Shown: piece after piece, positions 979 through 23,541 of the stretch
Position numbering within the stretch: position 1 is the stretch's first letter
Layout: the number at the start of each line of letters is the position of its first letter
NCBI RefSeq assembly: GCF_055900595.2
Contig: NZ_CM148325.1
Reading direction: 5' to 3' (one strand)
Length of the DNA stretch: 64,000 bases
Made by a program: the position numbers and the translations under genes
Notes under the pieces: model-generated
Seen by the model: the letters and a program-made list of their open reading frames with translations, nothing else
Databases searched by the model: none
What the model was told of the DNA's origin: nothing

Positions 979-1045
979 GCCGGATGCGACGCTTGACGCG
1001 TCTTATCCGGCCTACAGATCGCGGCGGTAGGCCAGATAAAGCGAC
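979..1045. repeat. REP/BIME palindromic element in the eptC-yijO intergenic region
   Basis: gccggatgcgacgcttgacgcgtcttatccggcctac matches the enterobacterial REP consensus. Confidence 0.7.
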
Positions 1046-1155
1046 TGAAACTGCCGCAATGTTTACATCGCACTCCCATCAGGCCACACTTTTCAGGTGG
1101 CCTTTTTTCATAATGCCAGTTACTGTTTTCCCGTCTATGTACCTAAGGGAATAAC

Positions 1156-2007
1156 ATGTATCACGACGTCAGCTATCTGCTCTCCCGCCTGATCAACGGC
1201 CCGCTGTCCCTGCGCCAGATTTACTTTGCCAGCAGCAACGGCCCGGTGCCCGATCTTGCGTATCAGGTCGATTTTCCACGGCTGGAAATTGTGCTGGAAG
1301 GTGAGTTTGTTGATACCGGCGCTGGAGCAACGTTAGTTCCCGGCGATGTGCTGTACGTTCCCGCTGGTGGCTGGAATTTTCCACAATGGCAAGCCCCCGC
1401 CACTACCTTTAGCGTGCTGTTTGGCAAACAGCAACTCGGCTTCAGCGTCGTGCAATGGGATGGCAAACAATATCAAAATCTGGCGAAGCAACACGTCGCC
1501 CGACGCGGCCCGCGCATTGGTTCTTTTCTGCTACAAACGCTCAATGAAATGCAAATGCAGTCGCAGGAGCAGCAAACGGCCAGACTTATCGTCGCTAGCC
1601 TGCTTAGCCACTGCCGCGATTTGCTCGGCAGCCAAATCCAGACCGCCTCACGTAGCCAGGCACTATTTGAAGCTATTCGCGATTATATCGACGAACACTA
1701 TGCCACCGCGCTTACCCGCGAATCTGTCGCACAGGCGTTCTATATTTCGCCAAATTACCTCTCGCACCTGTTTCAAAAAACGGGGGCCATTGGTTTTAAC
1801 GAATACCTGAATCACACGCGACTGGAACACGCTAAGACGTTATTGAAAGGCTATGACCTGAAGGTAAAAGAAGTGGCGCACGCCTGCGGCTTTGTTGACA
1901 GCAACTACTTCTGCCGTCTGTTTCGTAAAAACACCGAACGCTCGCCGTCGGAATATCGTCGGCAGTACCACAGCCAACTGACAGAAAAACCGACTACTCC
2001 AGAATAA
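1156..2007 (+). CDS. yijO: AraC-family transcriptional regulator YijO
   Basis: 283-aa ORF with C-terminal AraC-type HTH (…YISPNYLSHLFQK…); synteny. Confidence 0.85.
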   Translation: MYHDVSYLLSRLINGPLSLRQIYFASSNGPVPDLAYQVDFPRLEIVLEGEFVDTGAGATLVPGDVLYVPAGGWNFPQWQAPATTFSVLFGKQQLGFSVVQWDGKQYQNLAKQHVARRGPRIGSFLLQTLNEMQMQSQEQQTARLIVASLLSHCRDLLGSQIQTASRSQALFEAIRDYIDEHYATALTRESVAQAFYISPNYLSHLFQKTGAIGFNEYLNHTRLEHAKTLLKGYDLKVKEVAHACGFVDSNYFCRLFRKNTERSPSEYRRQYHSQLTEKPTTPE

Positions 2008-2335
2008 GGTGGGTTTGCTGCGGCGCAGAAAGCACTTTGCGCACCGCGCTCATTACCCGCTGCGGCTCACGCAGGAATGCGTAGATGCTGCATTGCACAT
2101 AGCGGCAATGTTCAAATCGCTCGGCACCGGCAAGCTCGATATCCGTAATTAACAGCGCAACATCCGCCCGACGGATATCCTCGTCCGCTAAACGATTCTC
2201 CGTCCCCAGCGCGCCCTGAGTTTCAATGCTGACGCCCCACTTCTCTATCTGGCACAACTTTTCCAGCCGTTCCGCCGCCATATAAGTATGCGCCACGCCA
2301 CTGACACAGGCGGTTACTGCCACCAGGTATGCCAT
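1994..2335 (-). CDS. frwD: PTS fructose-like IIB component FrwD
   Basis: MAYLVAVTACVSGVAHTYMAAE… PTS IIB fold with active-site Cys; start trimmed to the internal Met to match the ~113-aa protein. Confidence 0.8.
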   Translation of the reverse strand: MAYLVAVTACVSGVAHTYMAAERLEKLCQIEKWGVSIETQGALGTENRLADEDIRRADVALLITDIELAGAERFEHCRYVQCSIYAFLREPQRVMSAVRKVLSAPQQTHLILE

Positions 2336-2336
2336 T

Positions 2337-3215
2337 TTAACCTCCCACGGTAACCTGAAATCCGGCCCGTTCTGCCATTTCGCGCATCGTTGCCACATCG
2401 GCTGACGACGGCGCTGGCACCTCTTTCATCGACCATGTTTTCCCCAGCAGACGGTATTTTGGTTCGCCGTACTGGTGAAACGGTAACAGATGGATCTGCC
2501 TGATATTCAGCGGGATCAGCACGTCCAGCGCCTGCTGCATATTCTCCCGGCTGAGTGTGAAACCAGGGATCAGCGGTAAACGCGGGGTCACGTTGACACC
2601 CTCACTCACCAGCAAACGCAAGTTCTCCAGCACGCGTGGCAGGTTCATCTTCACCACATCCCGCGCCTGAGTCACGTCCATAATTTTTAAATCGAACAAC
2701 ACTTCATCGCACAATTTCGCCAGCGGTAACAACTTGCTGGCTGGCGCGTCTCCGGCAGTTTCGATGGCGCATGACACACCCCATAGCCGCAGTCGCTGTA
2801 AAAAACGGGTCGCAAACTCCGCCTGCATTAACACTTCGCCGCCAGAAAGCGTGACGCCACCGCCGGACGCGCGAAAGAAAATGTCATCTTTCATCACTTC
2901 CCGCTCCAGCGCGTCAAGGCTGATATCGCGACCAATCCGTTCAAACGCGCCGGAGGGGCATTCATCCGCATCACGCAAACATTTTGCGCAGTGCAGGCAT
3001 TTCGCCTCTCTGCGCACCGTCTGGATTTTGCCGGAGATCGACTCCGGATTAGCACACCACGGGCAAAGATGCGGGCAGCCTTTAAAAAAGACCACCGTGC
3101 GGATGCCCTCACCGTCATTCAGTGAATAACGCTGAATGTTGAAAATGCGCGCCACGTCATCGCGGCGCGTTTCTACAACGTTACAGCTGATGTGCTGTCC
3201 GGCGGATGATGTCAT
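2337..3215 (-). CDS. pflC: Pyruvate formate-lyase 2 activating enzyme (radical SAM)
   Basis: CPHLCPWC radical-SAM cysteine motif; 292 aa from MTSSAGQ…; lies next to pflD. Confidence 0.85.
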   Translation of the reverse strand: MTSSAGQHISCNVVETRRDDVARIFNIQRYSLNDGEGIRTVVFFKGCPHLCPWCANPESISGKIQTVRREAKCLHCAKCLRDADECPSGAFERIGRDISLDALEREVMKDDIFFRASGGGVTLSGGEVLMQAEFATRFLQRLRLWGVSCAIETAGDAPASKLLPLAKLCDEVLFDLKIMDVTQARDVVKMNLPRVLENLRLLVSEGVNVTPRLPLIPGFTLSRENMQQALDVLIPLNIRQIHLLPFHQYGEPKYRLLGKTWSMKEVPAPSSADVATMREMAERAGFQVTVGG

Positions 3216-5478
3216 CCTGGATCTCCTTCGACAGTTCGACAAAGAAGGCGCTGTATCCGGCTACGCGCACCACCAGCCCGGCATAATCTTGTGGGCGCTG
3301 TTGCGCTTCCCGCAACGTGTCGGCGTTCACCACGTTAAACTGAATGTGTTGTAATTTAAGCTGGGTAAATGCCCGTAAGAAGTCGGCTAGTTTGCGTAAT
3401 CCCGCTTCACCTTCCAGGGTCGCCGGAGTGAATTTCACGTTCAGCAATGTACCGTTAGAAAGCAGCGTGTTATCGAGCTTGCTGACTGATTTCAGTACCG
3501 CCGTTGGTCCTTGTGCATCCTGGCCCAGCATGGGAGACAAACCACCGTCTGCCAGTTGTTCCCCGGCAAAACGGCCGTCTGGCGTCGCACCAACCACCGC
3601 TCCCAACGGGACATGAGCAGAAACGGTATACGATCCTGGCGTGAAGTAGCCACCGCGCGGGTTCTGGTATTTTTCCACTTCTTTGCAGTAATGACGCAGG
3701 AGTTCAGCGCTAATGTTATCCACCTCGTCGATATCGTTACCGTATTTCTCAAAGCGGTTAATTAAGCGAGCGCGGACTTTTTCGCCTTCTGGCGTTGCGA
3801 AGTTGGCTTTTAATACCGACAGCAATTCGTCAAAACTTAAACGCTGTTGCTCAAAAACCATCCCTTTCAACGCATGGAGAGAATCGCTCAGGTTGGCGAT
3901 ACCGATCCCCTGTACGCCGGAGAAGTTATAACGCGCGCCGCCATCGGTAATATCGCGGCCTTTTTCCAGACAATCGCTGATAAACGATGAGAGCAGCGGT
4001 ACAGGAGCCCAGTCACGATGGCCGATATCACAAATATTGCTGCCTTCAACCATCAGGGTGATGTAGTGGCTGATCTTGACGCGGATCTGTTCCAGCAAAC
4101 CTTCATAACTCAGCGCAGCATTACCTTCATTTTCATGCAGGCAGATTTCCATCACTTTCAGCAGGTTAAACATCGCGATGTCATGCAGACCGTAGGTTCT
4201 GCCGGGAATAGATAATTCCACGCACCCCACTACGGAATAGTCGCGCGCATCTTCCAGCGAAACGCCACGGTTGAGGAACGCTGGCACCACCACTTCATCG
4301 TTGAAGATTTGCGGAATACCCGTGCCGAGGCGGATGGTTTCTGCGGTTTTCATCAGGAACGGCGTGTCGATCAAGGCGTTAGTGCGCACGCCGAGGTTCG
4401 GTTGCGGCAATTGCACGCTTTGATAAGCGTCAAGGCAAAGGAACGAAAGCACGTTCACCGCGCTACGTCCGTTCTCGGTTAAACCGCCGAGCAGTGCGGT
4501 ATAGCCGGTCGGGAAACCTGCGAAATAACGCGCACTGCGGGTGGAGCGTAAAAGCACGATGTCATTGCATTTCACCCATAAAGATTCGAGCAGTTCTTTC
4601 AGGAACGCCGGATCTTCGCCCTGGGTTAATGATGCCTGATAGAATGGCAACATATACTGGTCGAAGCGCCCTAAAGACAGCGAGCTGGCGTTGGATTCGT
4701 ATTGCAGAATGATGTTCATGTACCAGAACAACTGGCACGCCTGCCAGAATGTCTGTGGCTTATGTTCGGCGTTATGGCGGGAGATCTCCGCCATAGTCAG
4801 CAGTTCTTCGCGACGCTGGGCATCAGTGCAGTTTGCCGCCATCGTTTCCGCCAGTTCGGCGTAACGCAAAATGTGTTTCTGCGAGGCTTCGAGCAATAAC
4901 AGCGCAGCCTGATAAAAGTGATTCTCCGGCTGTTGCTGGCAATGTTGCTGCATCTGCGCCACCAGCTCACCCAGCCCGTGATTCAGCAGGCGCGGGTAAT
5001 CAATAATGATGTGCCCCTGGCCTTTATCTGTCTGGTTGATACTGAAAATCTGCGTGCTGGTCGCGGCTTTTACTTCATCCGTCATCTGCCCGTTAATAAA
5101 ATCTTTCATCGAGCGTTTTTCCCAGTATGGGAACAGCTCTTCGCGGTAGATACGTTTATCTTCTTCACTAATGGCGAAGCGGTCCTGCGGTCGCGTCGGA
5201 AATTGATCCAGCTCTTTCAGCAGCCAGTAAGGGTCCATTTCCGGCGACATAATCCCGGCGCGCGGTTTTACGGTACGGTTACCAGCAATCAGTTCTTCAT
5301 CACGAATCGAAATTTCAACATGTTCAAGGATATACGCTGTTGCTTTCGCCCGGCGCAATATCACTGGTTCGCCTTCGGTTTGCCGATGGCTGGCGGTATA
5401 AAGCAGCGCCCGCTCCAGCGAGATTTCACGGGTATTAGCAAACAGTGCAGTTTTAAGGCGAGAGATACGATTCGTCAT
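3181..5478 (-). CDS. pflD: Formate acetyltransferase 2 (glycyl radical enzyme, PFL-like)
   Basis: 765-aa ORF with the C-terminal glycyl-radical motif (…VRVAGYSAFF…). Confidence 0.9.
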   Translation of the reverse strand: MTNRISRLKTALFANTREISLERALLYTASHRQTEGEPVILRRAKATAYILEHVEISIRDEELIAGNRTVKPRAGIMSPEMDPYWLLKELDQFPTRPQDRFAISEEDKRIYREELFPYWEKRSMKDFINGQMTDEVKAATSTQIFSINQTDKGQGHIIIDYPRLLNHGLGELVAQMQQHCQQQPENHFYQAALLLLEASQKHILRYAELAETMAANCTDAQRREELLTMAEISRHNAEHKPQTFWQACQLFWYMNIILQYESNASSLSLGRFDQYMLPFYQASLTQGEDPAFLKELLESLWVKCNDIVLLRSTRSARYFAGFPTGYTALLGGLTENGRSAVNVLSFLCLDAYQSVQLPQPNLGVRTNALIDTPFLMKTAETIRLGTGIPQIFNDEVVVPAFLNRGVSLEDARDYSVVGCVELSIPGRTYGLHDIAMFNLLKVMEICLHENEGNAALSYEGLLEQIRVKISHYITLMVEGSNICDIGHRDWAPVPLLSSFISDCLEKGRDITDGGARYNFSGVQGIGIANLSDSLHALKGMVFEQQRLSFDELLSVLKANFATPEGEKVRARLINRFEKYGNDIDEVDNISAELLRHYCKEVEKYQNPRGGYFTPGSYTVSAHVPLGAVVGATPDGRFAGEQLADGGLSPMLGQDAQGPTAVLKSVSKLDNTLLSNGTLLNVKFTPATLEGEAGLRKLADFLRAFTQLKLQHIQFNVVNADTLREAQQRPQDYAGLVVRVAGYSAFFVELSKEIQDDIIRRTAHQL

Positions 5479-5528
5479 GAGGAACTCCTGTGGGAAAGCG
5501 AACCCGCCCTTACGGGCGGGATAAGAAC

Positions 5529-5849
5529 TTAAGCGGTTTGCGCCAGGTGAGCTTCAATTTTGCTCATAATGGCATCAGCACGTTTTACCGCGTCGCTGAT
5601 GTTGACGCGCACAATGGTCTTGCCAGCAAAACGCTCTTCAAACTTGATGCCGATATCTTTGGTCAGAATCACCATATCGGCGCTCGCCACGTCTTCCGCA
5701 GTCAGTTCATTTTCCAGACCAATCGAGCCCTGGGTTTCTACTTTCACTTCCCAGCCTTTCGCTTTCGCGGCACTTTCCAGCGCCTCTGCCGCCATATAAG
5801 TATGGGCAACACCAGATGGACACGCGGTTACTGCAATAATTTTCGTCAT
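5529..5849 (-). CDS. frwB: PTS fructose-like IIB component FrwB
   Basis: MTKIIAVTACPSGVAHTYMAAE…, paralog of FrwD. Confidence 0.85.
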   Translation of the reverse strand: MTKIIAVTACPSGVAHTYMAAEALESAAKAKGWEVKVETQGSIGLENELTAEDVASADMVILTKDIGIKFEERFAGKTIVRVNISDAVKRADAIMSKIEAHLAQTA

Positions 5850-5863
5850 GGCTCGTTCCTCAA

Positions 5864-6943
5864 TTAATTAATTTCAAAATCCAAATCCAGGTCGTCTTCT
5901 TTTTCATCAGTCGAAGACCCATTTTTACGCGCCAGACTTTTCAGCACGTTCACGCAGACTGCCGTCACCACTGCTCCGACAGCCACTGCGGCGATATAAC
6001 CCAGCTTGCCTTCAACCACCGGCAGCACAATCAGACCACCCCAGCCTGCATAGCACTGCGCACCGACCAGCGCCGCAGTTACTGCACCACAAACTGAACC
6101 GACCATGATGGAAGGAATGACACGCAGCGGATCGGCAGCGGCGAAAGGAATCGCCCCTTCAGTAACACCAACGCACCCCATCACCAGCGCCGCTTTGCCG
6201 GTTTCGCGCTCTTCTGCAGAGAAATTTTTACGACCAATCAGCGTCGCCAGCCCCATGCCCAACGGTGGAACACAAATCCCAACAGCGGCAATAGCCACCA
6301 CGGTATAAACACCCTGAGCAACGCAAATCAGCATGAAGGCATAGGCCACTTTGTTAACCGGACCACCCATATCGAACGCCAGCATCAGCCCCATGATCAC
6401 CGCCAGCATAACAATGCTGCCCTGCTGCATCCCCTGTAGCCACTGAGTCAGGCTGTTGGTCAACGCACCCACCGGCTCGCCCAGTCCCCACATCATGACA
6501 CCAGCGGTAATCAGTGTGCCGACGATCGGAATGATGAAGATTGGCATCACCGAGCGCAGAACTTTATGCACCGGAATTTTCTTCAGATAATGCACCACGA
6601 TGCCGCCGATAATCCCTGCGATCAGCGCACCAAAGAAGCCCGCGCCAAAGCTGTTACCAACCCAGGCACCGATGGCGCACGGAGCCAGCGCAGAACGTTC
6701 TGCAATGGAATAACCGATGTACGCTGCGAGGAAAGGCACCATCAGCGTCAACCCCGCAACGCCGATATCAAACAGTTTTTTTAGATTCGGATCGGCTACG
6801 GCATCCGGCACTGCGCCTTTGCCATACAAAATGACGGAAACCTCCAGCAAAATACCGCCCGATACCACGAAGGGAATCATATGTGAAACGCCCGTCATTA
6901 AATGCTGACGGGTATTTTTCAGGATCTGCACCAACTCATTCAT
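5864..6943 (-). CDS. frwC: PTS fructose-like IIC permease FrwC
   Basis: Polytopic membrane ORF; start placed at MNELVQILK…. Confidence 0.85.
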   Translation of the reverse strand: MNELVQILKNTRQHLMTGVSHMIPFVVSGGILLEVSVILYGKGAVPDAVADPNLKKLFDIGVAGLTLMVPFLAAYIGYSIAERSALAPCAIGAWVGNSFGAGFFGALIAGIIGGIVVHYLKKIPVHKVLRSVMPIFIIPIVGTLITAGVMMWGLGEPVGALTNSLTQWLQGMQQGSIVMLAVIMGLMLAFDMGGPVNKVAYAFMLICVAQGVYTVVAIAAVGICVPPLGMGLATLIGRKNFSAEERETGKAALVMGCVGVTEGAIPFAAADPLRVIPSIMVGSVCGAVTAALVGAQCYAGWGGLIVLPVVEGKLGYIAAVAVGAVVTAVCVNVLKSLARKNGSSTDEKEDDLDLDFEIN

Positions 6944-7251
6944 AAGCTGCTCCCGGGCTTGCAAAAGCCCATGTCCATATTTTTGATGGAGGAAACAATA
7001 GGCAATCGCAGGCGGAGCAAACAGTGGATAAAAAGGCCATTTACTGGACTTTTGTAATATCAGTACAAAAATGCGATCCGCCTCATAACTTGCGATACCC
7101 CGGAAGCATGCCGCAGAACGGCGTCTTGTGAGACGCGTCGCAAATTGACGGTTACATTACATTTGTCCAGCTTTTGGCAGATTTGTCACATGGCAGGCCG
7201 TTGCCGTGCGCTCTTATCCTGTAAACAGAGAACCGTACCGGGAGAAAGGCA

Positions 7252-9753
7252 ATGGCCCTGATTGTGGAATTTATTTGTGAGCTACCTAACGGCGTACATG
7301 CCCGTCCGGCAAGCCACGTTGAAACGCTGTGTAATACTTTTTCATCACAAATTGAGTGGCATAACCTGCGCACTGACCGCAAGGGCAACGCCAAAAGCGC
7401 CCTTGCGCTGATTGGCACCGATACGCTGGTGGGCGATAGCTGCCAGTTACTGATTTCCGGGGCCGATGAACAGGAAGCGCATCAGCGTTTAAGCCAATGG
7501 CTGCGCGATGAATTTCCCCACTGCGACGCGCCGCTGGCGGAAATAAAATCTGACGAACTGGAGCCGCTGCCGGTATCATTAACCAACCTGAATCCGCGTA
7601 TTATCCGCGCCCGCACCGTATGCAGTGGTAGCGCAGGCGGCATTCTGACGCCAATCTCTTCTTTAGATCTCAACGCGCTGGGTAACCTCCCCGCAACCAA
7701 CGGCGTTGACGCCGAGCAATCCGCGCTGGAAAACGGCCTGACACTGGTACTGAAAAATATTGAGTTTCGTCTGCTGGATAGCGACGGTGCTACCAGCGCG
7801 ATTCTGGAAGCGCACCGATCCCTGGCTGGCGATACTTCCCTGCGCGAACATTTACTGGCAGGCGTCAGCGCCGGATTAAGCTGCGCCGAAGCAATTGTCG
7901 CCAGTGCGAATCACTTTTGCGAAGAGTTCGCCCGTTCCAGCAGCAGCTACCTGCAAGAACGCGCGCTGGATGTGCGCGATGTCTGCTTCCAGTTACTCCA
8001 GCAAATCTACGGCGAGAAACGCTTTCCGGCACCGGGCAAGCTAACGCAGCCCGCCATTTGTATGGCGGATGAACTGACCCCTAGCCAGTTCCTCGAACTG
8101 GATAAAAATCACCTCAAAGGATTGTTGCTCAAAAGCGGCGGCACCACCTCACACACGGTGATCCTTGCCCGTTCGTTCAACATTCCGACGCTGGTTGGTG
8201 TGGATATTGATGCCCTTACTCCGTGGCAGCATCAAACGATTTATATCGACGGCAACGCTGGGGCGATTGTGGTTGAGCCAGGAGAAGCCGTAGCCCGTTA
8301 TTATCAGCAAGAAGCCCGCGTACAGAACGCCCTTCGTGAGCAACAGCGTGTCTGGCTGACCCAACAAGCCCGTACCGCTGACGGTATCCGCATTGAAATT
8401 GCCGCTAACATCGCTCACTCCGTCGAAGCGCAGGCCGCATTCGGCAATGGTGCGGAAGGCGTTGGTTTGTTCCGCACTGAAATGCTCTATATGGATCGCA
8501 CCAGTGCACCGGGCGAAAGCGAGCTGTACAACATTTTTTGTCAGGCGCTGGAGTCCGCCAACGGACGCAGCATTATTGTGCGCACTATGGATATTGGCGG
8601 TGACAAACCCGTTGATTATCTGAATATTCCCGCAGAGGCAAACCCGTTCCTCGGTTATCGCGCCGTACGTATTTATGAAGAGTACGCCTCGTTGTTTACC
8701 ACGCAGCTACGATCGATCCTGCGCGCCTCCGCTCATGGCAGCCTGAAAATCATGATCCCGATGATCTCTTCAATGGAAGAGATCTTATGGGTGAAAGAAA
8801 AACTGGCAGAAGCTAAACAGCAGCTGCGTAACGAACACATTCCGTTTGATGAGAAAATCCAGCTCGGTATCATGCTTGAAGTGCCGTCAGTAATGTTCAT
8901 CATCGATCAATGCTGTGAAGAGATTGATTTCTTTAGTATTGGTAGTAATGACCTGACGCAATATCTGCTGGCAGTGGATCGCGATAACGCTAAGGTAACT
9001 CGTCACTACAACAGCCTGAATCCGGCATTCTTACGAGCGCTTGATTACGCCGTGCAGGCAGTGCATCGCCAGGGCAAATGGATTGGTCTGTGCGGTGAAC
9101 TGGGGGCGAAAGGTTCCGTGCTGCCGTTGCTGGTCGGTTTAGGGCTGGATGAGTTGAGCATGAGTGCACCGTCAATTCCGGCGGCGAAAGCGCGAATGGC
9201 GCAACTTGATAGCCGCGAATGCCGCCAGTTGCTCAACCAAGCAATGGCCTGCCGTACTTCGCTGGAAGTGGAACACCTGCTGGCGCAATTCCGCATGACG
9301 CAACAGGATGCACCGCTGGTCACCGCCGAGTGCATCACGCTGGAAAGCGACTGGCGCAGCAAAGAAGAAGTGCTCAAAGGCATGACCGATAACCTGCTGC
9401 TGGCGGGCCGCTGCCGCTATCCGCGTAAACTGGAAGCCGACTTGTGGGCACGCGAGGCCGTTTTCTCTACCGGTCTGGGCTTTAGTTTTGCCATTCCCCA
9501 CAGCAAATCAGAACACATTGAGCAATCCACCATCAGTGTAGCGCGTCTGCAAGCGCCGGTGCGCTGGGGCGATGATGAAGCACAATTCATCATTATGTTA
9601 ACCCTGAACAAACACGCTGCGGGCGATCAGCATATGCGCATTTTCTCGCGCCTCGCTCGCCGCATCATGCACGAAGAATTCCGTAACGCGCTGGTTAACG
9701 CCGCCTCTGCCGACGCTATCGCCAGCCTGCTGCAACATGAACTGGAACTGTAA
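7252..9753 (+). CDS. ptsA: Multiphosphoryl transfer protein PtsA/FrwA (HPr-like, enzyme I-like and IIA-like domains)
   Basis: 833-aa ORF with PEP-utilizing enzyme motifs (…[13 protein letters not shown]…). Confidence 0.9.
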
Positions 9754-9764
9754 AAGGAAACATC

Positions 9765-10427
9765 ATGGAACTGTATCTGGACACCGCTAACGTCGCAGAA
9801 GTCGAACGTCTGGCACGCATATTCCCGATTGCCGGGGTGACAACTAACCCGAGCATTATCGCGGCCAGCAAGGAGTCCATCTGGGAAGTGCTGCCGCGTT
9901 TGCAAAAAGCGATTGGTGATGAGGGTATTTTGTTTGCTCAGACCATGAGTCGTGACGCACAGGGTATGGTGGAAGAAGCGAAGCGCCTGCGCGACGCCAT
10001 TCCGGGCATTGTGGTGAAAATCCCGGTAACTTCCGAAGGTCTTGCCGCCATTAAAATGCTGAAAAAAGAGGGTATTACTACACTTGGCACCGCTGTATAT
10101 AGCGCCGCACAAGGGTTATTAGCCGCGCTGGCAGGGGCAAAATATGTTGCTCCGTATGTTAACCGCGTCGACGCCCAGGGCGGTGACGGCATTCGTACGG
10201 TTCAGGAGCTGCAAGCGCTGTTGGAAATGCACGCGCCAGAAAGCATGGTGCTGGCTGCCAGCTTTAAAACACCGCGTCAGGCGCTGGATTGTTTGCTGGC
10301 AGGATGTGAGTCCATCACCCTACCCTTAGATGTAGCGCAACAAATGCTCAACACTCCTGCGGTAGAGTCGGCTATAGAGAAGTTTGAGCACGACTGGAAT
10401 GCCGCATTTGGCACTACTCATCTCTAA
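9765..10427 (+). CDS. fsaB: Fructose-6-phosphate aldolase 2 (transaldolase-like)
   Basis: [13 protein letters not shown]… 220 aa. Confidence 0.9.
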
Positions 10428-10437
10428 AGGAGCAATT

Positions 10438-11541
10438 ATGGACCGCATTATTCAATCACCGGGTAAATACATCCAGGGCGCAGATGTCATTAATCGTCTG
10501 GGCGAGTACCTGAAGCCGCTGGCAGAACGCTGGTTAGTGGTGGGTGACAAATTTGTTTTAGGTTTTGCTCAATCCACTGTCGAGAAAAGCTTTAAAGATG
10601 CTGGACTGGTAGTAGAAATTGCGCCGTTTGGCGGTGAATGTTCGCAAAATGAGATCGACCGTCTGCGTGGCATCGCGGAGACTGCGCAGTGTGGCGCAAT
10701 TCTCGGTATCGGTGGCGGAAAAACCCTCGATACTGCCAAAGCGCTGGCACATTTCATGGGTGTTCCGGTAGCGATCGCACCGACTATTGCCTCTACCGAC
10801 GCGCCGTGCAGCGCGCTGTCTGTTATCTACACCGATGATGGTGAGTTTGACCGCTATTTGCTGTTGCCAAATAACCCGAATATGGTCATTGTCGACACCA
10901 AAATCGTCGCGGGCGCACCTGCACGTCTGTTAGCGGCGGGTATCGGCGATGCGCTGGCGACCTGGTTTGAAGCGCGTGCTTGCTCTCGTAGCGGTGCGAC
11001 CACAATGGCGGGCGGTAAGTGTACTCAGGCAGCGCTGGCGCTGGCTGAACTGTGCTACAACACGCTGCTGGAAGAAGGCGAAAAAGCGATGCTTGCCGCC
11101 GAACAGCATGTAGTAACTCCAGCACTGGAACGCGTGATTGAAGCGAACACCTATTTGAGCGGCGTTGGCTTTGAAAGCGGTGGGCTGGCTGCGGCGCACG
11201 CGGTGCATAACGGCCTGACTGCAATCCCTGATGCCCATCACTATTATCATGGTGAAAAAGTGGCATTCGGTACGCTGACGCAGCTGGTTCTGGAAAATGC
11301 GCCGGTGGAAGAAATCGAAACCGTAGCTGCACTTAGCCATGCGGTAGGTTTGCCAATAACCCTCGCTCAACTGGATATTAAAGAAGATGTCCCGGCGAAA
11401 ATGCGGATTGTGGCAGAAGCGGCATGTGCAGAAGGTGAAACCATCCACAACATGCCTGGCGGCGCGACGCCAGATCAGGTTTACGCCGCACTGCTGGTAG
11501 CCGACCAGTACGGTCAGCGTTTCCTGCAAGAGTGGGAATAA
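10438..11541 (+). CDS. gldA: Glycerol dehydrogenase
   Basis: [17 protein letters not shown]… 367 aa, iron-containing alcohol dehydrogenase family; the ORF track begins upstream at an alternative start. Confidence 0.9.
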
Positions 11542-11584
11542 TCTATGCCAAACTCCCGGCTTGTCCGGGAGTTTGAACGCAAAA

Positions 11585-11690
11585 TTGCCTGATGCGCTAC
11601 ACTTATCAGGCCTACGAAATATATGCAATGCATTGAATTTACGTGTTTTTTATGTCTGACAAGGCGTTCACGCCGCATCCGGCACTCTGT
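11585..11690. repeat. REP/BIME cluster in the gldA-yijF intergenic region
   Basis: gcctgatgcgctacacttatcaggcctac and ggcgttcacgccgcatccggca REP-type palindromes. Confidence 0.7.
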
Positions 11691-11812
11691 GCCATTAATC
11701 TGATACTCCCACGTTGTTCGGGAGTTTTTATCCGCTTCTGGACATTTTCTCCACAGAACAATCGTTAGCCCGGAAGGTCGAATCTGTGAATATTTTTTCA
11801 CGGACGAAACAG

Positions 11813-12430
11813 ATGAAAGCTTCACTGGCGTTGTTCAGTCTTCTGACGGTATTTACCAGTTACTCCTTAAAATCTCCCGCTGTTCCACCAACCGTGGTAC
11901 AAATCCAGGCCAACACCAATCTTGCCATCGCAGACGGTGCCAGACAGCAAATTGGCAGCACGCTATTTTACGATCCGGCGTATGTGCAGCTTACTTATCC
12001 TGGCGGTGATGTCCCGCAAGAGCGCGGCGTATGTTCCGATGTGGTGATCCGTGCCCTGCGCAGCCAGAAGGTCGATTTGCAGAAACTGGTTCACGAAGAT
12101 ATGGCGAAGAATTTTGCCGATTATCCGCAAAAGTGGAAGTTAAAACGCCCGGACAGCAACATCGATCACCGTCGGGTGCCTAATCTGGAAACCTGGTTTA
12201 CCCGCCACGATAAAACGCGCCCCACCAGCAAAAACGCCAGTGACTACCAAGCGGGCGATATTGTCTCCTGGCGATTAGATAATGGGCTGGCACATATTGG
12301 GGTGGTTTCAGATGGCTTCGCCCGCGACGGTACGCCGCTGGTGATACATAACATTGGCGCAGGCGCGCAGGAAGAAGACGTGCTGTTTAGTTGGCAGATG
12401 GTGGGGCACTATCGGTATTTTGCTAAATAA
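11813..12430 (+). CDS. yijF: DUF1287 family protein YijF (signal peptide)
   Basis: MKASLALFSLLTVFTSYS… ; start taken at the internal Met of ORF 11714..12430. Confidence 0.75.
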   Translation: MKASLALFSLLTVFTSYSLKSPAVPPTVVQIQANTNLAIADGARQQIGSTLFYDPAYVQLTYPGGDVPQERGVCSDVVIRALRSQKVDLQKLVHEDMAKNFADYPQKWKLKRPDSNIDHRRVPNLETWFTRHDKTRPTSKNASDYQAGDIVSWRLDNGLAHIGVVSDGFARDGTPLVIHNIGAGAQEEDVLFSWQMVGHYRYFAK

Positions 12431-12456
12431 GCGCTCGCCCCACATGAAGAAAAAAT

Positions 12457-13362
12457 TCAGATCCTTTTTACACTGACGGCTTCTTTTTTCTTACGGCTCA
12501 CCAGCGCCAGTGCCAGCACAATCAGCACAATACCGCTACCTTCAACGGCCCCCGGATTTTCACCGAGCAGCCACCAGGAAAAGAGTACGCCACAAACGGG
12601 AACAGCCAGTGTACTTAAGCTGGCAATACTGGCGGGCAAGTTTTTCAGCACAAACAACCATAAACTCCAGGCCAGCGCCGTCGCCAGAATCGCACTGTAG
12701 GCCAGCGCCCAGAATACGGTGGGCTGCCAGTCAATTTCACGTTGCGGCACCAGTAAAGCGACCGCACTCATCACCAGCGCCGCATACAACATCTGCCAGG
12801 ATGTTAACGACAATAAATCCACGCGCGGATGACGGGCGTAAAGGCGTTTAGCGACAATGGCACTCGCCCCCCAACTGACACCAGAGAGGATCGCCAGCAT
12901 GGCGCTTTTCATCGAAGAGAAATTGAGTTGCCACGGCTGCAACACCAAAAATAAGCCGAAAGCGGCAATGAGAATCGCGAAATATTGCCCGCGTCGCAGG
13001 CGTTCACCGAGAAACAACGCGGCGAAAATCACCACCCAGAATGGCATGGTATAGCTCAGGATTGCCACCTTCCCTGCTCCGCCGCTCACCAGCGCCCACT
13101 GCGCCAGGCCAACCATCCCGCAGGTTTGTAACAGGGCAATGGCTAAGGTGTATTTAAAGGGCGTCGGGCGCATGCCGCGACCGCGTAATAAAAGGACGAT
13201 GAATAAAACGAGAGCGCCGAAAATGCAGCGTAAAGCGGTAAAGTCGAAGGCACCGATGTAGCTGGTGACTTGCTTCATGAAAATCCAGCTATAACTCCAG
13301 ATAAGTGTGAGCACAACCAGGCCACTGATTGCCAGTGGGTTGCTCTTTCCTGCGGCAGACAT
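12457..13362 (-). CDS. yijE: EamA/DMT-family transporter YijE
   Basis: Polytopic membrane ORF; synteny between yijF and katG. Confidence 0.8.
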
Positions 13363-16940: not shown

Positions 16941-17150
16941 AGCTGAAGGGCGTCAACCGAAAAATGACCAATGATGGTGAGGAAAAATCAGGGAAGATGA
17001 AAAAAACTCATCTTAATTAGAGGTAATAAAGAGATTTCTTTATAGCGCAATCAACCTCACTCGTTTTGACTGATATACAGGCAACACAACGGCACCTGTT
17101 CTCATTCGAAAAACAACGCCCTGCCACCAGATGGTGATGCTAAAGCATCT

Positions 17151-17181
17151 GATTCGGCCTGCGCTCTCGTGTAGGCCGAAT
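17151..17181. terminator. Stem-loop downstream of island nucleotidase paralog 1; possible terminator near the left island boundary
   Basis: attcggcct…aggccgaat inverted repeat. Confidence 0.3.
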
Positions 17182-17237
17182 ACAGAATCTGCGAAATCAA
17201 CTGGTAACAAACAGTAGAGTCAACTCAGTGCGTACTT

Positions 17238-18797
17238 TTATTTAATATCTTTCACGCGCATACCGTTGATCTGTTCATCCGTGATGGTGTTACCCGCTTT
17301 AAAGTAATCAACCACCGCGTGATAAACGTAATAACCGCCCGTCGTATTGCGCGCTTTACCCTCGGTAAACGCGGTAAAACCATCTCCACCATCAGCAAGG
17401 AAACTCTGAGTAGCAATGTGGTAAACCGTCGCATCTTCAATCGGTTTGCCATTCAGCGTCAGCGAGATAACCCGCTGACCAACCGGCTTGCTGCTGTCGT
17501 ACTTCATTTCCAGGCCTTTCGATACCTGTAAAACGCCATTACTTAAACTTGCGCCGTGTTCCATCAAACCGCGTAATTGTTTACCCGTGAGTTCCATCGT
17601 CACCAGTTCGTTGGGGAACGGGAAGGTACTGATGACGCCACCCATCGTAATTGCACCCGCCGGGATCTCATTGCGAATCCCACCAGAGTTGGTTAACGCC
17701 AACTGGGTATTTTTACCCGCCGCTACCAGTAAAGCGTCCGCCGCCAGGTTCCCCAGGGATGCCGATTCACCATAGGCACGTTTTAATTCAACTGGCGATT
17801 GCGCCACCGTTTGCTGCACGACTTCATCCAGCTTTTTATTCCAACTATCAATCACCTGTTTTGTTTGCGCATCGGGCTTCCACTCGTCGGCGTAAAGGGT
17901 TTTAAGCTCGAAGTTTTTCACCGTAAAAGTGTGCGGTTTCTCTTTGTAGTCGAGAACCAGTTTACCCACATCAATCCCACCGCTGTCAGTGGAGAGGATG
18001 AGCGTATTGCCGACTTTAATCGGTTCCGGCGTACCCACATGTGCATGCCCGGTGATCAAAATATCCAGCCCTTTCACCTGACTTGCCGTCTGAATATCTT
18101 TATCCAGTGCGCGGCGCACATCTGTGCCCCCCATACTGGACTGGCGGGCCGGAACACCTTCGTGAATCAGCGCAACGGTCAAATCAACCTTGCCTTTGAG
18201 TTCATCGATATAACGTTGTAGCCATTTAATTTCATCACGCGCCTCAATACCCACTCGCGTTGCCGCAGATACCGTATCATTAAAGGCAAATACACCGTGC
18301 AAACCTATAACACCAATTTTCACGCCGTCTTTTTCAATAATGGTATATGGCTTATCCCAGAATGATTTACTGCTGTTCTGATAAAAAACATTACCCTGCA
18401 CAATCGGGAATTGTGCCTGACTCAACTGTAATAACGTATTGTCCCAGCCGTGATCAAATTCATGATTACCTATAGTGGCCGCATCGAACGGCATGGTATT
18501 CATAATATCGATAATCGCCTTGCCTTTAGTCAGGCTGCTGATATACGGCCCGGTAAAATAGTCACCCGCATCAAAAAACCAGGTCGCTTTGTTTTTAGCT
18601 TTTTCTTGTTTAACAAGCGTAGTGATATTTGCCCAGCCGCCAATATCCCGTTTACCCTCAGCAATCCACGGCACTTTATAGGGCTCTACATGTGCGTGGA
18701 GGTCATTGGTATAAATAATGGTGACATCTTTGGCGCAGGCCCAAAACGGCAGTGTTAATGCGATACCCGCAGCAAGCATTTTAATTTTCATAAACAA
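17238..18797 (-). CDS. Island paralog 1: secreted 5'-nucleotidase/UDP-sugar hydrolase-like metallophosphoesterase (UshA family)
   Basis: N-terminal signal peptide; metallophosphatase motifs DLHAH, DAGDYF, GNHEFD, HEG, GHAH; C-terminal 5'-nucleotidase-like domain; no K-12 counterpart at this locus. Confidence 0.8.
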
Positions 18798-18850
18798 TCC
18801 CTTCCAGTGAGATAAAGGATTGCTACATTACGTTCTGAAAGGCTTTTTTA

Positions 18851-18866
18851 TGTGAGAATACTCACA
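18851..18866. promoter_or_regulatory. Perfect CRP-binding palindrome in the divergent intergenic region between island paralog 1 and the Zn-ribbon gene
   Basis: tgtga-gaatac-tcaca equals the TGTGA-N6-TCACA CRP consensus, with an A/T-rich flank. Confidence 0.55.
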
Positions 18867-18923
18867 TCCAGAGGCAATAACTGTAGGACAAAATCGACGA
18901 CCTTATGAAATCGTTGGTGATAT

Positions 18924-20051
18924 ATGTCAAATCTGTTTGCGATTAATGTCTGTAAAACGTTCGGTTGTCGAAATTTGGGATTGGCCTCATCGGAAGATTA
19001 CAGTTGGCCAGACTATAAACTGGGTTTTCCGGCACTGCACTGCCAGGCATGCGGAAGTTACCCCCCTTTGTTTGATGAACAACAATTTCGTGACTGGTTG
19101 TCAGTTCACATGACTGCGTGTGCCATAGAAACAGGGCATTTTTGTCCATCATGCTATTGTAAAGAAAAGATTTTTTATGGCCACAACCCGCATGGAACAC
19201 AACGCGTTCAATGCCGTTCATGCAAAAAAGTCTGGACTCCGAAACAGCAGCCAGCAAGAGAAATTACGTATCCCCAGTCCATTGAAACCGTTCAACTGTT
19301 CATGCCCTTTCAAGGAGCCAGCGCACTACAAAAGCTCTATGTTTTAGTCAGTCTTGACGCCACTCGTGGCAACATCCTTCATCTCTCCACGAATTATACG
19401 CAACATCAGACAGGAGACAGTCTGCGGTACAGTTACAGAGGCAATACAGAACCAACTGAGCACCATAGCGATATTGTGCAGAGGGTAGATATGCGTGAAG
19501 CGCAATTCTTGCGCCGGAGCCAGTTCGATGAAATTCAGTATGGCAGTGCTGTGCTCAAGCGCAATGGCAAGGGAGCCATACTACGCCCGGTTATCACGGC
19601 TCACGGGCATTTCAGAATACTGAAAATCCGCTTTCCACATGTCAAAACGCATATCATTTCACACGAATGTTTTCTGAGAGGCGCAATTATTACAGCCTGG
19701 GCAGATCAGTTCCGCCAACAACAAGGCGAACTTTGGTTCGTAGAAGAAGAAATCAGCGACCGTAACGCTGATATTCCCTGGCATTTTCAGGGAACGACAT
19801 ACCATGGTTGGTGGCAAAATCAGTGGCAACGCTGGGGGCAGGGGAATAACAGCAAGATGGTCTGCCTGCTCACAGGAGTCTCCTTAGAAAGGGGCGCAAA
19901 TGTTTCTCTGGCAACCAGTCGTTGCTTTATCACATGGCTGACAGACCAACACGACTTTACCCAAAGCGCGTTATTATCCGCAGGTCGCGTAACGAAAATG
20001 CTGACCTCACTGGCGTTAAAATACAATGAATCGCTCACTCCATCTTGTTAG
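18924..20051 (+). CDS. Cys-rich Zn-ribbon protein resembling an IS1595/ISXO2-family transposase; catalytic integrity uncertain
   Basis: FCPSCYC…(12 aa)…RVQCRSCKKVW follows the CPxCG…RYxCKxCxKxF transposase Zn-ribbon pattern; a downstream stretch (THIISHECF…FVEEEISDRN) loosely resembles the end of a DDE domain. Confidence 0.55.
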   Translation: MSNLFAINVCKTFGCRNLGLASSEDYSWPDYKLGFPALHCQACGSYPPLFDEQQFRDWLSVHMTACAIETGHFCPSCYCKEKIFYGHNPHGTQRVQCRSCKKVWTPKQQPAREITYPQSIETVQLFMPFQGASALQKLYVLVSLDATRGNILHLSTNYTQHQTGDSLRYSYRGNTEPTEHHSDIVQRVDMREAQFLRRSQFDEIQYGSAVLKRNGKGAILRPVITAHGHFRILKIRFPHVKTHIISHECFLRGAIITAWADQFRQQQGELWFVEEEISDRNADIPWHFQGTTYHGWWQNQWQRWGQGNNSKMVCLLTGVSLERGANVSLATSRCFITWLTDQHDFTQSALLSAGRVTKMLTSLALKYNESLTPSC

Positions 20052-20169
20052 TCAATACACTCGACAAACGACCATAAATTAATGGGATCACTATTTCTCA
20101 TTTAATTAAATATATGAATGTATGACTGAAAAATATAATCACAGTCAATGTTTAATTAATAACATTATT

Positions 20170-20185
20170 TGTTACTAAGATCACA
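20170..20185. promoter_or_regulatory. CRP-like site (one mismatch) in the AT-rich promoter region upstream of island paralog 2
   Basis: tgtta-ctaaga-tcaca, about 95 bp upstream of the ATG at 20281. Confidence 0.3.
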
Positions 20186-20280
20186 TAATACTTTCCTGAC
20201 CTATGCTTACATAAAAATAAGACACGGAGTTCCTTTTATTTAAATAATTCAACCAATGTAACAACCCCTATCAAGGAGGG

Positions 20281-21834
20281 ATGATGAGAACTGTATTTAC
20301 GACTTTATCAGTCATATTCAGCGTGATGTTTTCTCACAGTATACTAGCTCAGGACGTTACTATTTATTATACGAATGATATTCACGCACATGTCAATCCG
20401 GCAAAAATTCCCGCTGTTGATAAGAACAGACTTGTAGGTGGTATGGCTAATATTGCAGGCATCGTTAATGAAGCGAAGAAAAAAAACAAAGATGTCTTTT
20501 TCTTTGATGCAGGCGACTATTTTACCGGTCCGTATATCAGTACCCTGACCAAAGGTGAAGCTATTATTGATATCATGAACACCATGCCCTTTGATGCGGT
20601 GTCCGTTGGTAATCACGAGTTCGATCACGGCGTGCCCAATATGGTATCTCAGTTATCAAAAGCAAAATTCCCCATTCTGCTGGGAAATATTTACTACACC
20701 GATACAAATAAACCAGTTTGGGATCATCCGTGGACTATTATCGAAAAAGATGGTTTAAAGATTGGTGTGATTGGATTGCATGGTGCATTCGCTTTCTATG
20801 ATACAGTCGCGGCAAAAGCACGTGAAGGCGTAGAAGCCAGAGACGAAATTAAATATTTAAATAAAGCACTTGCAGAATTAAAAGGTAAAGTCGACATTAC
20901 CGTTTTGCTAATTCACGAAGGTGTTCCGGCGCGTCAATCAAGCTTTGGTAGTAAAGATGTGGAGCGGCTACTACAGGCAGATATTGAGACAGCTAAAAAA
21001 GTGAATGGTGTTGATGTCTTAATTACCGGTCACGCACATGTCGGAACACCGCAACCAATAAAAGTTAATAACACATTAATTGTATCTACCGATGCATACG
21101 GCACCGACATCGGAAAACTTGTGCTTGATTACAATCCGAAAACGAAGAAAATTGATAGTTATAATGGTGAGTTAATCACCATCTTCGCAGATCAATTTAA
21201 ACCTGACACCATCGTTCAAAATACTATCGATAAATGGAGTGCAAAGCTTAACAAAATAACACAGGAAGTTGTCGGCCATTCTCCCGTAGTTTTAACACGT
21301 GAGTATGGCAGTTCTTCTTCTACCGGTAACCTTATTCTTGATGCAATGATGGAAAAAACACCAGATGCCATTGCCGGATTTCAAAATAGCGGTGGGATGC
21401 GAGCTGATTTTCCTAAAGGTGATATCACGCTGGGAGATGTTATTAGCACATTCCCCTTTAATAATGACCTCATCGAGATGGATTTGACGGGCCGCGATCT
21501 CAAATCGTTGATGACGCATGCAACCAATCTAACTAACGGTGTGTTACAGGTTTCAAAAAGCGTTGCGGTTGTCTATGACAGCAAAAAACCACTGAACCAA
21601 CGGTTAATCTCTTTCACCATTAACGGCAAACCCGTGGAAGATAATCAAACATATCGTATTGTCACGCACTCCTTTTGTGCCAGTGGTGGTGACGGTTTTG
21701 AAGCATTTTTGAATGGAAAAAATGTGAAGACGATACCGGGAACAACCTCGGCGGAATCTATCATCGATTATTTCAAAAATCATAAACCTGTCACCCCAGA
21801 CTTAACTAAACGAGTAATGGACGTCGCCAAATAA
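20281..21834 (+). CDS. Island paralog 2: secreted UshA-family 5'-nucleotidase-like metallophosphoesterase
   Basis: Signal peptide; DIHAH, DAGDYF, GNHEFD, GHAH motifs; AT-rich codon usage. Confidence 0.8.
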   Translation: MMRTVFTTLSVIFSVMFSHSILAQDVTIYYTNDIHAHVNPAKIPAVDKNRLVGGMANIAGIVNEAKKKNKDVFFFDAGDYFTGPYISTLTKGEAIIDIMNTMPFDAVSVGNHEFDHGVPNMVSQLSKAKFPILLGNIYYTDTNKPVWDHPWTIIEKDGLKIGVIGLHGAFAFYDTVAAKAREGVEARDEIKYLNKALAELKGKVDITVLLIHEGVPARQSSFGSKDVERLLQADIETAKKVNGVDVLITGHAHVGTPQPIKVNNTLIVSTDAYGTDIGKLVLDYNPKTKKIDSYNGELITIFADQFKPDTIVQNTIDKWSAKLNKITQEVVGHSPVVLTREYGSSSSTGNLILDAMMEKTPDAIAGFQNSGGMRADFPKGDITLGDVISTFPFNNDLIEMDLTGRDLKSLMTHATNLTNGVLQVSKSVAVVYDSKKPLNQRLISFTINGKPVEDNQTYRIVTHSFCASGGDGFEAFLNGKNVKTIPGTTSAESIIDYFKNHKPVTPDLTKRVMDVAK

Positions 21835-21868
21835 AATATCATTTATCAGTCTATTTATTTAACAAGGA

Positions 21869-23494: not shown

Positions 23495-23506
23495 TAAAAA
23501 AATTAT

Positions 23507-23541
23507 AATGCCATTCATTCACTGAATGGCATTATTTTTCT
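23507..23541 (+). terminator. Rho-independent terminator or attenuator between paralog 3 and the Tsx-like gene
   Basis: aatgccattcattcactgaatggcatt hairpin followed by atttttc. Confidence 0.55.

Follow-up and report, generated by a model that had tools for sequence, protein, structure and literature searches.

The gene set considered here is best described in Escherichia coli K-12, in which locus b3945-b3953 encodes frwCB-pflDC-frwD and, divergently, ptsA-fsaB-gldA; the function of the locus stayed obscure for decades before 2024. Section 5.1 of the review PMC12441222 states that the E. coli glycyl-radical enzyme (GRE) PflD turns 1,5-anhydromannitol-6-phosphate into 1-deoxyfructose-6-phosphate, citing Ma et al. 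(J Am Chem Soc 146:26187, 2024, doi 10.1021/jacs.4c07718), and that YbiW converts 1,5-anhydroglucitol-6-phosphate to the same compound. In that review both anhydro-hexitols are first phosphorylated by "a PTS", with no mention of Frw by name, both pathways support anaerobic growth, and the anhydro-hexitols to which E. coli is thereby connected are dietary, host-derived and of clinical interest. The anhydromannitol radical pathway is oxygen-sensitive.

According to the same account, the 1,5-anhydroglucitol-6-phosphate branch (YbiW/YbiY, or PflF/PflE, with FsaA) uses the same type of GRE ring opening and yields the same product. YbiW also resembles PflD in fold and motifs and in having a dedicated activase, but it is a paralogue (structures 8yjn/8id7 score 483 bits, versus 1721 bits for PflD), uses the C2 epimer of the PflD substrate, and is encoded elsewhere in the genome, outside the window (the whole 64,000-nucleotide stretch of contig NZ_CM148325.1, assembly GCF_055900595.2, analyzed here). 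The B12-independent glycerol dehydratase of Clostridium butyricum (1r8w) and the other GRE dehydratases/eliminases compared (propanediol dehydratase, hydroxyproline dehydratase and choline TMA-lyase) share with PflD the Gly loop, the GCxE motif and the type of activase. The PflD substrate, however, is a phosphorylated cyclic ether (an anhydro-hexitol-6-phosphate) that undergoes ring opening, not small-diol dehydration, and PflD scores far below the equivalog cut-offs of those glycyl-radical dehydratase/eliminase families. PflB/PflA have the glycyl-radical domain and the radical-SAM activation logic in common with PflD/PflC, but PflB has a Cys-Cys pair that PflD lacks, and only about 200 C-terminal residues align.

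The region is the ordinary, intact E. coli frw-pflDC/ptsA-fsaB-gldA locus, already known. On the minus strand are frwD (1994-2335, 113 aa), for a second fructose-family PTS IIB protein; pflC (2337-3215, 292 aa), for the radical-SAM activating enzyme of PflD; pflD (3181-5478, 765 aa), for the glycyl-radical enzyme; frwB (5529-5849, 106 aa), for a fructose-family PTS IIB protein; and frwC (5864-6943, 359 aa), for a fructose-family PTS IIC membrane permease. The plus strand carries ptsA (7252-9753, 833 aa), for a fused HPr-EI-IIA(Fru) multiphosphoryl transfer protein; fsaB (9765-10427, 220 aa), for fructose-6-phosphate aldolase 2; and gldA (10438-11541, 367 aa), for an NAD-dependent glycerol/1,2-propanediol dehydrogenase. 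Gene order, strands and coordinates (1994-11541) were as given in a first-pass annotation of this DNA, which had also called all the genes full-length: all eight have the K-12 length, an ATG start and a stop codon, with no internal stops, and the comparison with K-12 orthologues that it had proposed revealed no frameshift in the eight genes. The locus is collinear with K-12 b3945-b3954 and has the same order, strands, lengths, overlaps (35 nt between the start of pflC and the end of pflD), catalytic residues and control region. Every protein of the locus matched an NCBIfam equivalog over its whole length with a score higher than the curated cut-off, and these profile matches indicate orthology rather than chance.

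We regard the region, with a probability of about 0.87, as the E. coli locus through which 1,5-anhydro-D-mannitol is catabolized anaerobically, the 1,5-anhydromannitol branch of the radical-mediated glycolysis of Ma et al. (2024). The enzyme assignment is based on one secondary source, the review PMC12441222, and on PDB titles. In favor of this reading, PMC6643234 describes ptsA-fsaB-gldA as a single operon induced under anaerobiosis. The first-pass annotation had the substrate as unassigned, a statement that is out of date because the PflD pathway was shown in 2024, as that review reports. Of the unknown anaerobic sugar or sugar-alcohol pathway that it envisaged, the anaerobic character and the sugar-alcohol-like compound stand, but the substrate is now assigned.

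PflD falls in the GRE superfamily (Pfam PFL-like, 703.7 bits; Gly_radical, 108.2 bits). The glycyl-radical loop noted at first pass is present, with G741 in RVAG741Y, as are C419 and E421 (GCVE), which had not been named; all three residues were invariant, C419 and E421 in 16 orthologues. No inactivating substitution was found in the glycyl-radical Gly or the radical-SAM Cys residues. The locus in the window shows only allelic differences from that of K-12; in PflD 755/765 residues are identical, all 10 differences are at positions that also vary in enterobacterial orthologues, and S314R is the sole lineage-private change, absent from the rest of the sampled orthologues. PflD aligned over its full length (1-765) with PDB 8yjo, a crystal structure titled "Probable dehydratase PflD" (1721 bits, 98.7% identical), and scored above the cut-offs of NF007437 (1719 bits versus 1109) and of TIGR01774 for PFL2/glycerol-dehydratase GREs (1344.7 bits versus 678.2, residues 1-765). 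Its best non-orthologous structural relatives were glycerol dehydratase 1r8w, aligned over the full length (E = 4e-193), and diol dehydratase 5i2a.

The name formate C-acetyltransferase persists for the protein in RefSeq, NCBIfam and UniRef, the introduction of PMC6643234 refers to older literature that tied PtsA to anaerobic fructose catabolism, and the PTS proteins of the locus are of the fructose family; PflD might on these grounds be an authentic second formate-lyase acting on pyruvate (or a 2-ketoacid), and the Frw PTS an anaerobic fructose transporter. That interpretation is largely refuted and retains very little probability. PflD failed the pyruvate formate-lyase equivalog TIGR01255 (120.9 bits versus a cut-off of 994.2, at the C-terminus only), it contains no CC dipeptide and has GC419VE421 instead, and the PFL structure 1h16 matches just its glycyl-radical C-terminal 200 residues (E = 4e-33). 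The PDB depositors moreover call it a dehydratase, and PMC12441222 gives 1,5-anhydromannitol-6-phosphate as substrate. On motif and profile evidence PflD is classed as a dehydratase/eliminase-type GRE, for which the name formate acetyltransferase should be dropped, and by orthology the enzyme of the window is the predicted 1,5-anhydromannitol-6-phosphate ring-opening dehydratase/lyase. The earlier description "PFL-like" holds for the fold; it misleads as to function because PflD is of the dehydratase/eliminase type, with a Cys-x-Glu signature and a score below the PFL family cut-off. The value of the present analysis is mainly corrective, since public annotation still names PflD formate C-acetyltransferase and, as a result, sequence-only readers and pipelines keep flagging the locus as an orphan.

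The remaining proteins likewise carried their family signatures. PflC has the radical-SAM CxxxCxxC reported at first pass (C47-x3-C51-x2-C54) and a second Cys motif (C73x2C76x2C79x6C86), and it scored as a GRE-activating radical-SAM protein (NF007483, 622.3 bits versus 326; TIGR02494, 260.7 bits versus 174.35). The active-site Cys of the IIB proteins was also correctly called: C10 is present in FrwB (NF007783, 210.4 bits versus 135) and in FrwD (VTACVSGVAHT; NF007747, 224.6 bits versus a cut-off of 153, full length), the two being 44% identical. FrwC matched NF007787 over its full length (715 bits versus 426). The Pfam domain order of PtsA is PTS-HPr, PEP-utilisers_N, PEP-utilizers, PEP-utilizers_C and PTS_EIIA_2; the EI domain exceeded the cut-off of TIGR01417, the IIA and HPr domains those of Pfam PTS_EIIA_2 and PTS-HPr, and H16 (HPr), H301 (EI) and H750 (IIA), which had gone unnamed, are present. 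The locus thus has the features of a fructose-family PTS (IIB Cys, IIC permease, and His in the HPr, EI and IIA domains), and PtsA supplies the Frw IIB/IIC proteins with phosphoryl groups from PEP. FsaB scored as an FSA/TalC protein (TIGR00875, 351.5 bits versus 245.95) and has the Schiff-base K85. GldA (NF047954, 752.8 bits versus 700) has D171, H254 and H271, which we take, from GldA homologues, to be the Asp/His/His metal ligands of family III ADH.

In the pathway that we propose, PtsA (the HPr, Enzyme I and IIA fusion) would take phosphate from PEP and hand it to a IIB protein (FrwB, possibly FrwD) at Cys10, and FrwC would import the anhydro-hexitol, which would emerge as the 6-phosphate. 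PflC would place a radical on Gly741 of PflD; the radical would move to Cys419, with Glu421 as base, and radical C-O cleavage would open the ring to give 1-deoxyfructose-6-phosphate. FsaB would then split this compound into glyceraldehyde-3-phosphate, which would pass to glycolysis, and hydroxyacetone, and GldA with NADH would convert hydroxyacetone to 1,2-propanediol, balancing redox. In the published pathway FsaA/B and GldA reportedly act after PflD, FsaB being said to cleave 1-deoxyfructose-6-phosphate to glyceraldehyde-3-phosphate and hydroxyacetone and GldA to reduce hydroxyacetone to 1,2-propanediol. We infer from co-location that Frw is the PTS for anhydromannitol, and a split of work between FrwB and FrwD is presumed.

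Leclercia, Intestinirhabdus and Edwardsiella tarda all retain the unit AraC-IIB-activase-GRE-IIB-IIC | HPr/EI/IIA-Fsa(-GldA), E. tarda amid different flanking genes and with gldA not adjacent; Kosakonia sp. H02 keeps yijO-fsaB-gldA and has lost the GRE and the PTS. Given this loss and the non-adjacent gldA of E. tarda, FsaB and GldA probably serve beyond the pathway too, for example in dihydroxyacetone or glycerol metabolism. The same two genera could be taken to mean that the divergent operons are neighbors by history and not parts of one pathway, frwCB-pflDC-frwD being a separate unit. The genes ptsA-fsaB-gldA would then serve dihydroxyacetone, glycerol or methylglyoxal-derived hydroxyacetone metabolism, and overexpressed FsaB and GldA do contribute to dihydroxyacetone use (PMC6643234). 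This explanation appears unlikely. The locus encodes no EI/HPr/IIA donor other than PtsA, whose gene lies in the fsaB-gldA operon, so that the Frw IIB/IIC proteins cannot do without that operon; in Edwardsiella the divergent layout persists amid unrelated flanks; and the control region shared by the operons has the same motif, mirrored, before each of them. The position of FsaA/B and GldA downstream of PflD, reported for the published pathway, also speaks for a single pathway.

Relative to K-12, nucleotide identity was 94.7-96.5% per gene, with 0-11 amino-acid differences in each protein and 35 in the eight together. Per-gene dN/dS was 0.007-0.058: 0.058 for frwD, 0.036 for ptsA, 0.017 for fsaB and 0.007 for gldA, which has 1 amino-acid difference. 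FrwB is exactly the K-12 protein, frwB having 13 synonymous changes, and FrwC has 4 conservative substitutions. The first-pass view that intactness fits selection was borne out by strong purifying selection, the pooled dN/dS over 9.1 kb being 0.028 (dS 0.187, dN 0.0053). At least 80% of the locus was found in one place in 5393/5426 complete E. coli genomes (>99%). Because of this prevalence and the pooled dN/dS, intactness is the rule among E. coli, and it does not distinguish this window. The anhydromannitol pathway is under strong constraint even in the E. coli lineage of the window, which is about 4.5% diverged from most E. coli and the main phylogroups.

Between frwC and ptsA the operons diverge from a 308-bp control region (6944-7251), in which 301/308 bases are as in K-12, compared with a dS of about 0.19 in the flanking genes; Escherichia, Leclercia, Edwardsiella and Intestinirhabdus share long blocks of it without any change. 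Scanning this region gave no consensus sigma-70 promoter, a result that, with the historical label "cryptic", would suit a silent locus whose genes recently became useless and look conserved because they decay slowly. Weak promoters are, however, expected where operons depend on an activator, and the control region is conserved beyond synonymous sites. The excess of dS over dN, the lack of any frameshift or stop in so diverged a lineage and the presence in >99% of complete genomes all speak against silence, which has next to no probability and is already refuted by the selection signal.

The 15-bp motif CTGGAYNNNTGTAAT occurs twice in the control region, both times as an exact match. Copy A (7044-7058, plus strand), 101-115 bp upstream of the frwC start, lies in a column block invariant in 5/5 aligned genomes and is a candidate operator. 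Copy B (7156-7170, minus strand, inverted) lies 82-96 bp upstream of the ptsA start, within a block of some 40 bp with hardly any variation in 5/5 aligned genomes, and is oriented to ptsA as copy A is to frwC. A CRP-like candidate site, TGTGAGACGCGTCGCA (7127-7142), has 1 mismatch to TGTGA-N6-TCACA, and its halves TGTGA and TC.CA are conserved across genera.

We know of no description of how the anhydromannitol pathway is regulated. The gene yijO (1156-2007, plus strand) is convergent with frwD, sharing 14 bp at the 3' ends, and encodes an AraC-family transcription factor with the C-terminal double helix-turn-helix of AraC/XylS proteins (Pfam HTH_18, 77.1 bits; HTH_AraC, 67.4 bits). It shows 3 amino-acid differences from K-12 (dN/dS 0.058). 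The N-terminal domain of YijO is divergent. YijO is listed as a transcription factor of unknown function in PMC9308461, and PMC12288877 lists frwD-yijO as a convergent excludon, treating YijO as uncharacterized. The gene adjoins the module in Edwardsiella, Leclercia and Intestinirhabdus, and fsaB-gldA in Kosakonia; YijO is a candidate regulator of the module. A fuller and rather doubtful proposal is that YijO senses anhydromannitol or its 6-phosphate and activates both operons through the two copies of CTGGAYNNNTGTAAT, together with CRP at 7127-7142. FrwD may serve not in transport but in sensing phosphorylation state to modulate induction, and the overlap of frwD with yijO may add an antisense (excludon) layer.

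A terminator scan found, in the frwB-pflD spacer, a G+C-rich hairpin with a GNRA loop and 7 G-C pairs (5503-5520, minus strand; MFE -18.2 kcal/mol, z = -2.74), which may stabilize mRNA or act as a partial terminator. One C-G pair of this hairpin is T·G in K-12, and its GTAA loop is GCAA there. At this position Leclercia retains a 7-bp stem, and the sequence of Edwardsiella and Intestinirhabdus is different, longer and REP-like.

The window is E. coli chromosome. Of the 5426 complete genomes of this species, 5425 contain a match to segment 1500-12500, and seven match at 100%. Gene order was the same in the RefSeq annotation of the identical strain and in K-12 MG1655: eptC, yijO, frwD, pflC, pflD, frwB and frwC, with ptsA, fsaB and gldA on the divergent side, followed by yijF, yijE and katG. 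The span 1994-11541 assigned to the cluster in the first-pass annotation is exact, its two ends being the stop codons of frwD and gldA. There is a 35-nt overlap between pflD and pflC and a 1-nt gap between pflC and frwD, and the gaps within ptsA, fsaB and gldA are of 10-11 nt; this tight packing fits two operons diverging from the 308-bp control region between frwC and ptsA. The ptsA-fsaB-gldA genes were described as a single, anaerobically induced operon (PMC6643234). The coding regions of yijO (1156-2007, plus strand) and frwD are convergent and overlap by 14 bp at their 3' ends (1994-2007), and the pair was classed as a convergent excludon in an RNA-seq analysis of K-12 (PMC12288877).

The eight genes were compared with their K-12 counterparts. 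All are as long as in K-12, begin with ATG, are preceded by a Shine-Dalgarno-like sequence and contain no internal stop, and the products differ from those of K-12 by 0-11 amino acids per protein. Each protein matched an NCBIfam equivalog end to end, above the curated cut-off. Every catalytic residue looked for was present across the eight proteins: C47-x3-C51-x2-C54 in the activase PflC; G741 (in RVAGY) and C419 and E421 (in GCVE) in PflD; C10 in the VTAC(P/V)SGVAHT motif of FrwB and FrwD; H16, H301 and H750 in the HPr, EI and IIA domains of PtsA; K85 in FsaB; and D171, H254 and H271 in GldA. The cluster had been called intact with its catalytic motifs kept, and lengths, reading frames and checked residues all bear this out; the glycyl-radical glycine and the radical-SAM cysteines were searched for inactivating changes, and none was present. 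The second IIB protein, FrwD, shares 44% identity with FrwB and retains the active-site cysteine. The 10 positions at which PflD differs from its K-12 counterpart are all variable in the alignment of enterobacterial orthologues; K-12 has the minority state at several, and S314R is the sole change private to the lineage of the window.

PflD was assigned to an enzyme type by profile and structure alignment. Pyruvate formate-lyase (PFL) has a Cys-Cys pair, whereas PflD does not, and PflD scored 120.9 bits on the PFL equivalog against a cut-off of 994.2. PFL structures align with the C-terminal ~200 residues of PflD only (E = 4e-33), whereas glycerol dehydratase aligns over the full length (E = 4e-193); on the PFL2/glycerol-dehydratase family model PflD scored 1344.7 bits, the cut-off being 678.2. 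By these alignments PflD is classed as a glycyl-radical enzyme of the dehydratase/eliminase type. The earlier description of a PFL-like enzyme thus holds for the fold and fails for the function, the Cys-Cys pair being absent and the PFL equivalog not reached. PflD is still named "formate C-acetyltransferase" in RefSeq, NCBIfam (NF007437) and UniRef, as are its orthologues; the PDB depositors use dehydratase. Beyond the radical-SAM motif, PflC (gene 2337-3215) has a single extra cysteine motif, C73x2C76x2C79x6C86 (residues 73-86), and the general activase model TIGR02494 aligns from residue 83 onward only. Two ferredoxin-like cysteine motifs are common in dehydratase-type activases. The PflC sequence suggests a shortened auxiliary-cluster insert.

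In the first-pass annotation the substrate was held to be unassigned in E. coli, which is out of date, since 1,5-anhydromannitol-6-phosphate (1,5-AM6P) has been assigned to PflD in a review. A section of that review, reporting Ma et al. (2024), describes anaerobic pathways for 1,5-anhydroglucitol and 1,5-anhydromannitol, both of which start with phosphorylation by a PTS to the 6-phosphate; YbiW then cleaves 1,5-AG6P and PflD cleaves 1,5-AM6P, with 1-deoxyfructose-6-phosphate as the common product, and the reaction is strictly anaerobic because it requires the glycyl radical (PMC12441222). In the PDB, entry 8yjo is "Probable dehydratase PflD", with which PflD of the window aligned over all 765 residues at 98.7% identity; YbiW is represented by 8yjn and 8id7. 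Ma et al. are said to have found that FsaA or FsaB splits 1-deoxyfructose-6-phosphate into glyceraldehyde-3-phosphate and hydroxyacetone, and that GldA reportedly reduces the hydroxyacetone to 1,2-propanediol. With these steps, every enzyme gene of the locus would be accounted for.

Substitution rates were calculated for the eight genes pooled against K-12 and gave dS = 0.187, dN = 0.0053 and dN/dS = 0.028, with values per gene from 0.00 (frwB) to 0.058 (frwD). Intactness had been taken as a sign of selection for an unknown anaerobic sugar or sugar-alcohol pathway: maintenance by selection is upheld by the pooled dN/dS; the anaerobic setting and the sugar-alcohol-like compound stand too, and only the word "unknown" has to be dropped, the substrate having been published in 2024. 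At least 80% of the locus forms a single stretch in 5393 of the 5426 complete genomes, so that intactness is the normal E. coli state and no peculiarity of the window. This is a system already described, present here in its usual form, and the interest attached to it was overtaken by the 2024 work.

Over 1500-12500, identity to nearly all other E. coli among the 5426 complete genomes was 95.1-95.9%, and the region of the frw locus was at least 99% identical in only eight genomes (from human stool in Mali, a dog and other sources). Such low identity to K-12 could be read as recombinant import of the locus; this was excluded because the entire 64 kb is 95.2-98.2% identical to K-12. The low identity reflects a divergent lineage, not an imported locus, and the values would fit an E. 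coli lineage that is deep-branching or belongs to a cryptic clade.

Orthologues of PflD with 89-92% identity were found in Salmonella, Citrobacter, Leclercia, Enterobacter, Lelliottia and Edwardsiella. Neighbourhoods were compared in four genera, with one genome each. The whole module is kept in Leclercia adecarboxylata and Intestinirhabdus alba. Edwardsiella tarda keeps a yijO-like gene, IIB, activase, glycyl-radical enzyme, IIB and IIC, with divergent PtsA and Fsa, between unrelated flanks (uvrC/pgsA and ato) and with gldA not adjacent. Kosakonia sp. H02 has yijO-fsaB-gldA only (10001-12841 of its sequence), with the yijO orthologue directly upstream of fsaB-gldA and the entire frwD-pflC-pflD-frwB-frwC-ptsA block, hence glycyl-radical enzyme and PTS, absent. 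This comparison indicates that the module acts as a mobile unit. In Kosakonia the regulator gene appears to have outlasted the loss of the glycyl-radical enzyme and PTS genes, staying with those for the aldolase and the dehydrogenase; persistence of FsaB and GldA without the radical enzyme fits additional roles for both.

In each of the four genera compared, yijO adjoins the module. YijO, a candidate regulator of the locus, is treated in the literature as an uncharacterised AraC-type factor whose N-terminal domain is unusually divergent (PMC9308461). The control region (6944-7251) is identical to K-12 at 301 of 308 positions, with synonymous sites nearby ~19% diverged, and includes extended blocks without any change across Escherichia, Leclercia, Edwardsiella and Intestinirhabdus. 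Within these blocks lie two exact inverted copies of a 15-bp motif, CTGGAYNNNTGTAAT, at 7044-7058 (plus strand) and 7156-7170 (minus strand), each ~80-115 bp upstream of the gene it faces away from. One other near-match, with 1 mismatch, was found in the 64-kb window, a count that is not independent, the pattern having been derived from the two copies. We hypothesize that the pair are candidate operators for the regulator of the module. A putative CRP-like site, TGTGAGACGCGTCGCA, with 1 mismatch to the consensus and both half-sites conserved across genera, is located at 7127-7142; weaker matches are at 7072-7087 and 7175-7190. A scan of 1000-12600 placed no consensus sigma-70 promoter in the control region (hits overall were no commoner than in shuffles), as would be expected for activator-dependent promoters. 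A sigma-54 promoter was considered for TTGGCAGATTTGTCACA in the control region and rejected on inspection, as the GG-N10-GC spacing is unmet. Consensus sites for FNR, ArcA and Cra were absent from 6944-7251 within 2-3 mismatches, and terminator hits over 1000-12600 were no more frequent than in shuffles.

The spacer of frwB and pflD contains a stable hairpin at 5503-5520 (minus strand), with 7 G-C pairs, a GNRA loop and a folding energy of -18.2 kcal/mol (z = -2.74). In K-12 a T·G replaces a C-G in the stem with pairing retained, and Leclercia has a 7-bp stem; Edwardsiella and Intestinirhabdus have a different, longer, REP-like sequence at this position.

Elsewhere in the window, a 7.6-kb insertion relative to K-12 (17006-24650) separates metF from metL. 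Its genes encode three paralogous metallophosphatase/5'-nucleotidases (17238-18791, minus; 20284-21834 and 21875-23494, plus) and a Tsx-type nucleoside channel (23573-24433, plus), and an ORF of 375 aa (18924-20051, plus) has no Pfam match; the insertion resembles an islet for nucleotide/nucleoside scavenging. Relative to K-12 there is also about 1 kb of additional DNA between rraA and zapB (37935-38954), with a 208-aa hypothetical ORF that likewise lacks a Pfam match (38285-38911, plus). Strain E200086 matches the window at every position of 1500-12500 and differs further downstream, including an indel near 43771. The annotation of that strain lists rhaT as a pseudogene carrying an internal stop; the copy in the window (57282-58316, plus; 344 aa) is intact, with no internal stop. 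Four Rfam matches above the gathering score, all expected in this part of the E. coli chromosome, were the L31 ribosomal-protein leader (29787-29839, minus), the ClpQY (hslVU) promoter element (34439-34496, plus), ES036/CssrF (49175-49216, plus) and naRNA4/CssrE (54220-54297, plus).
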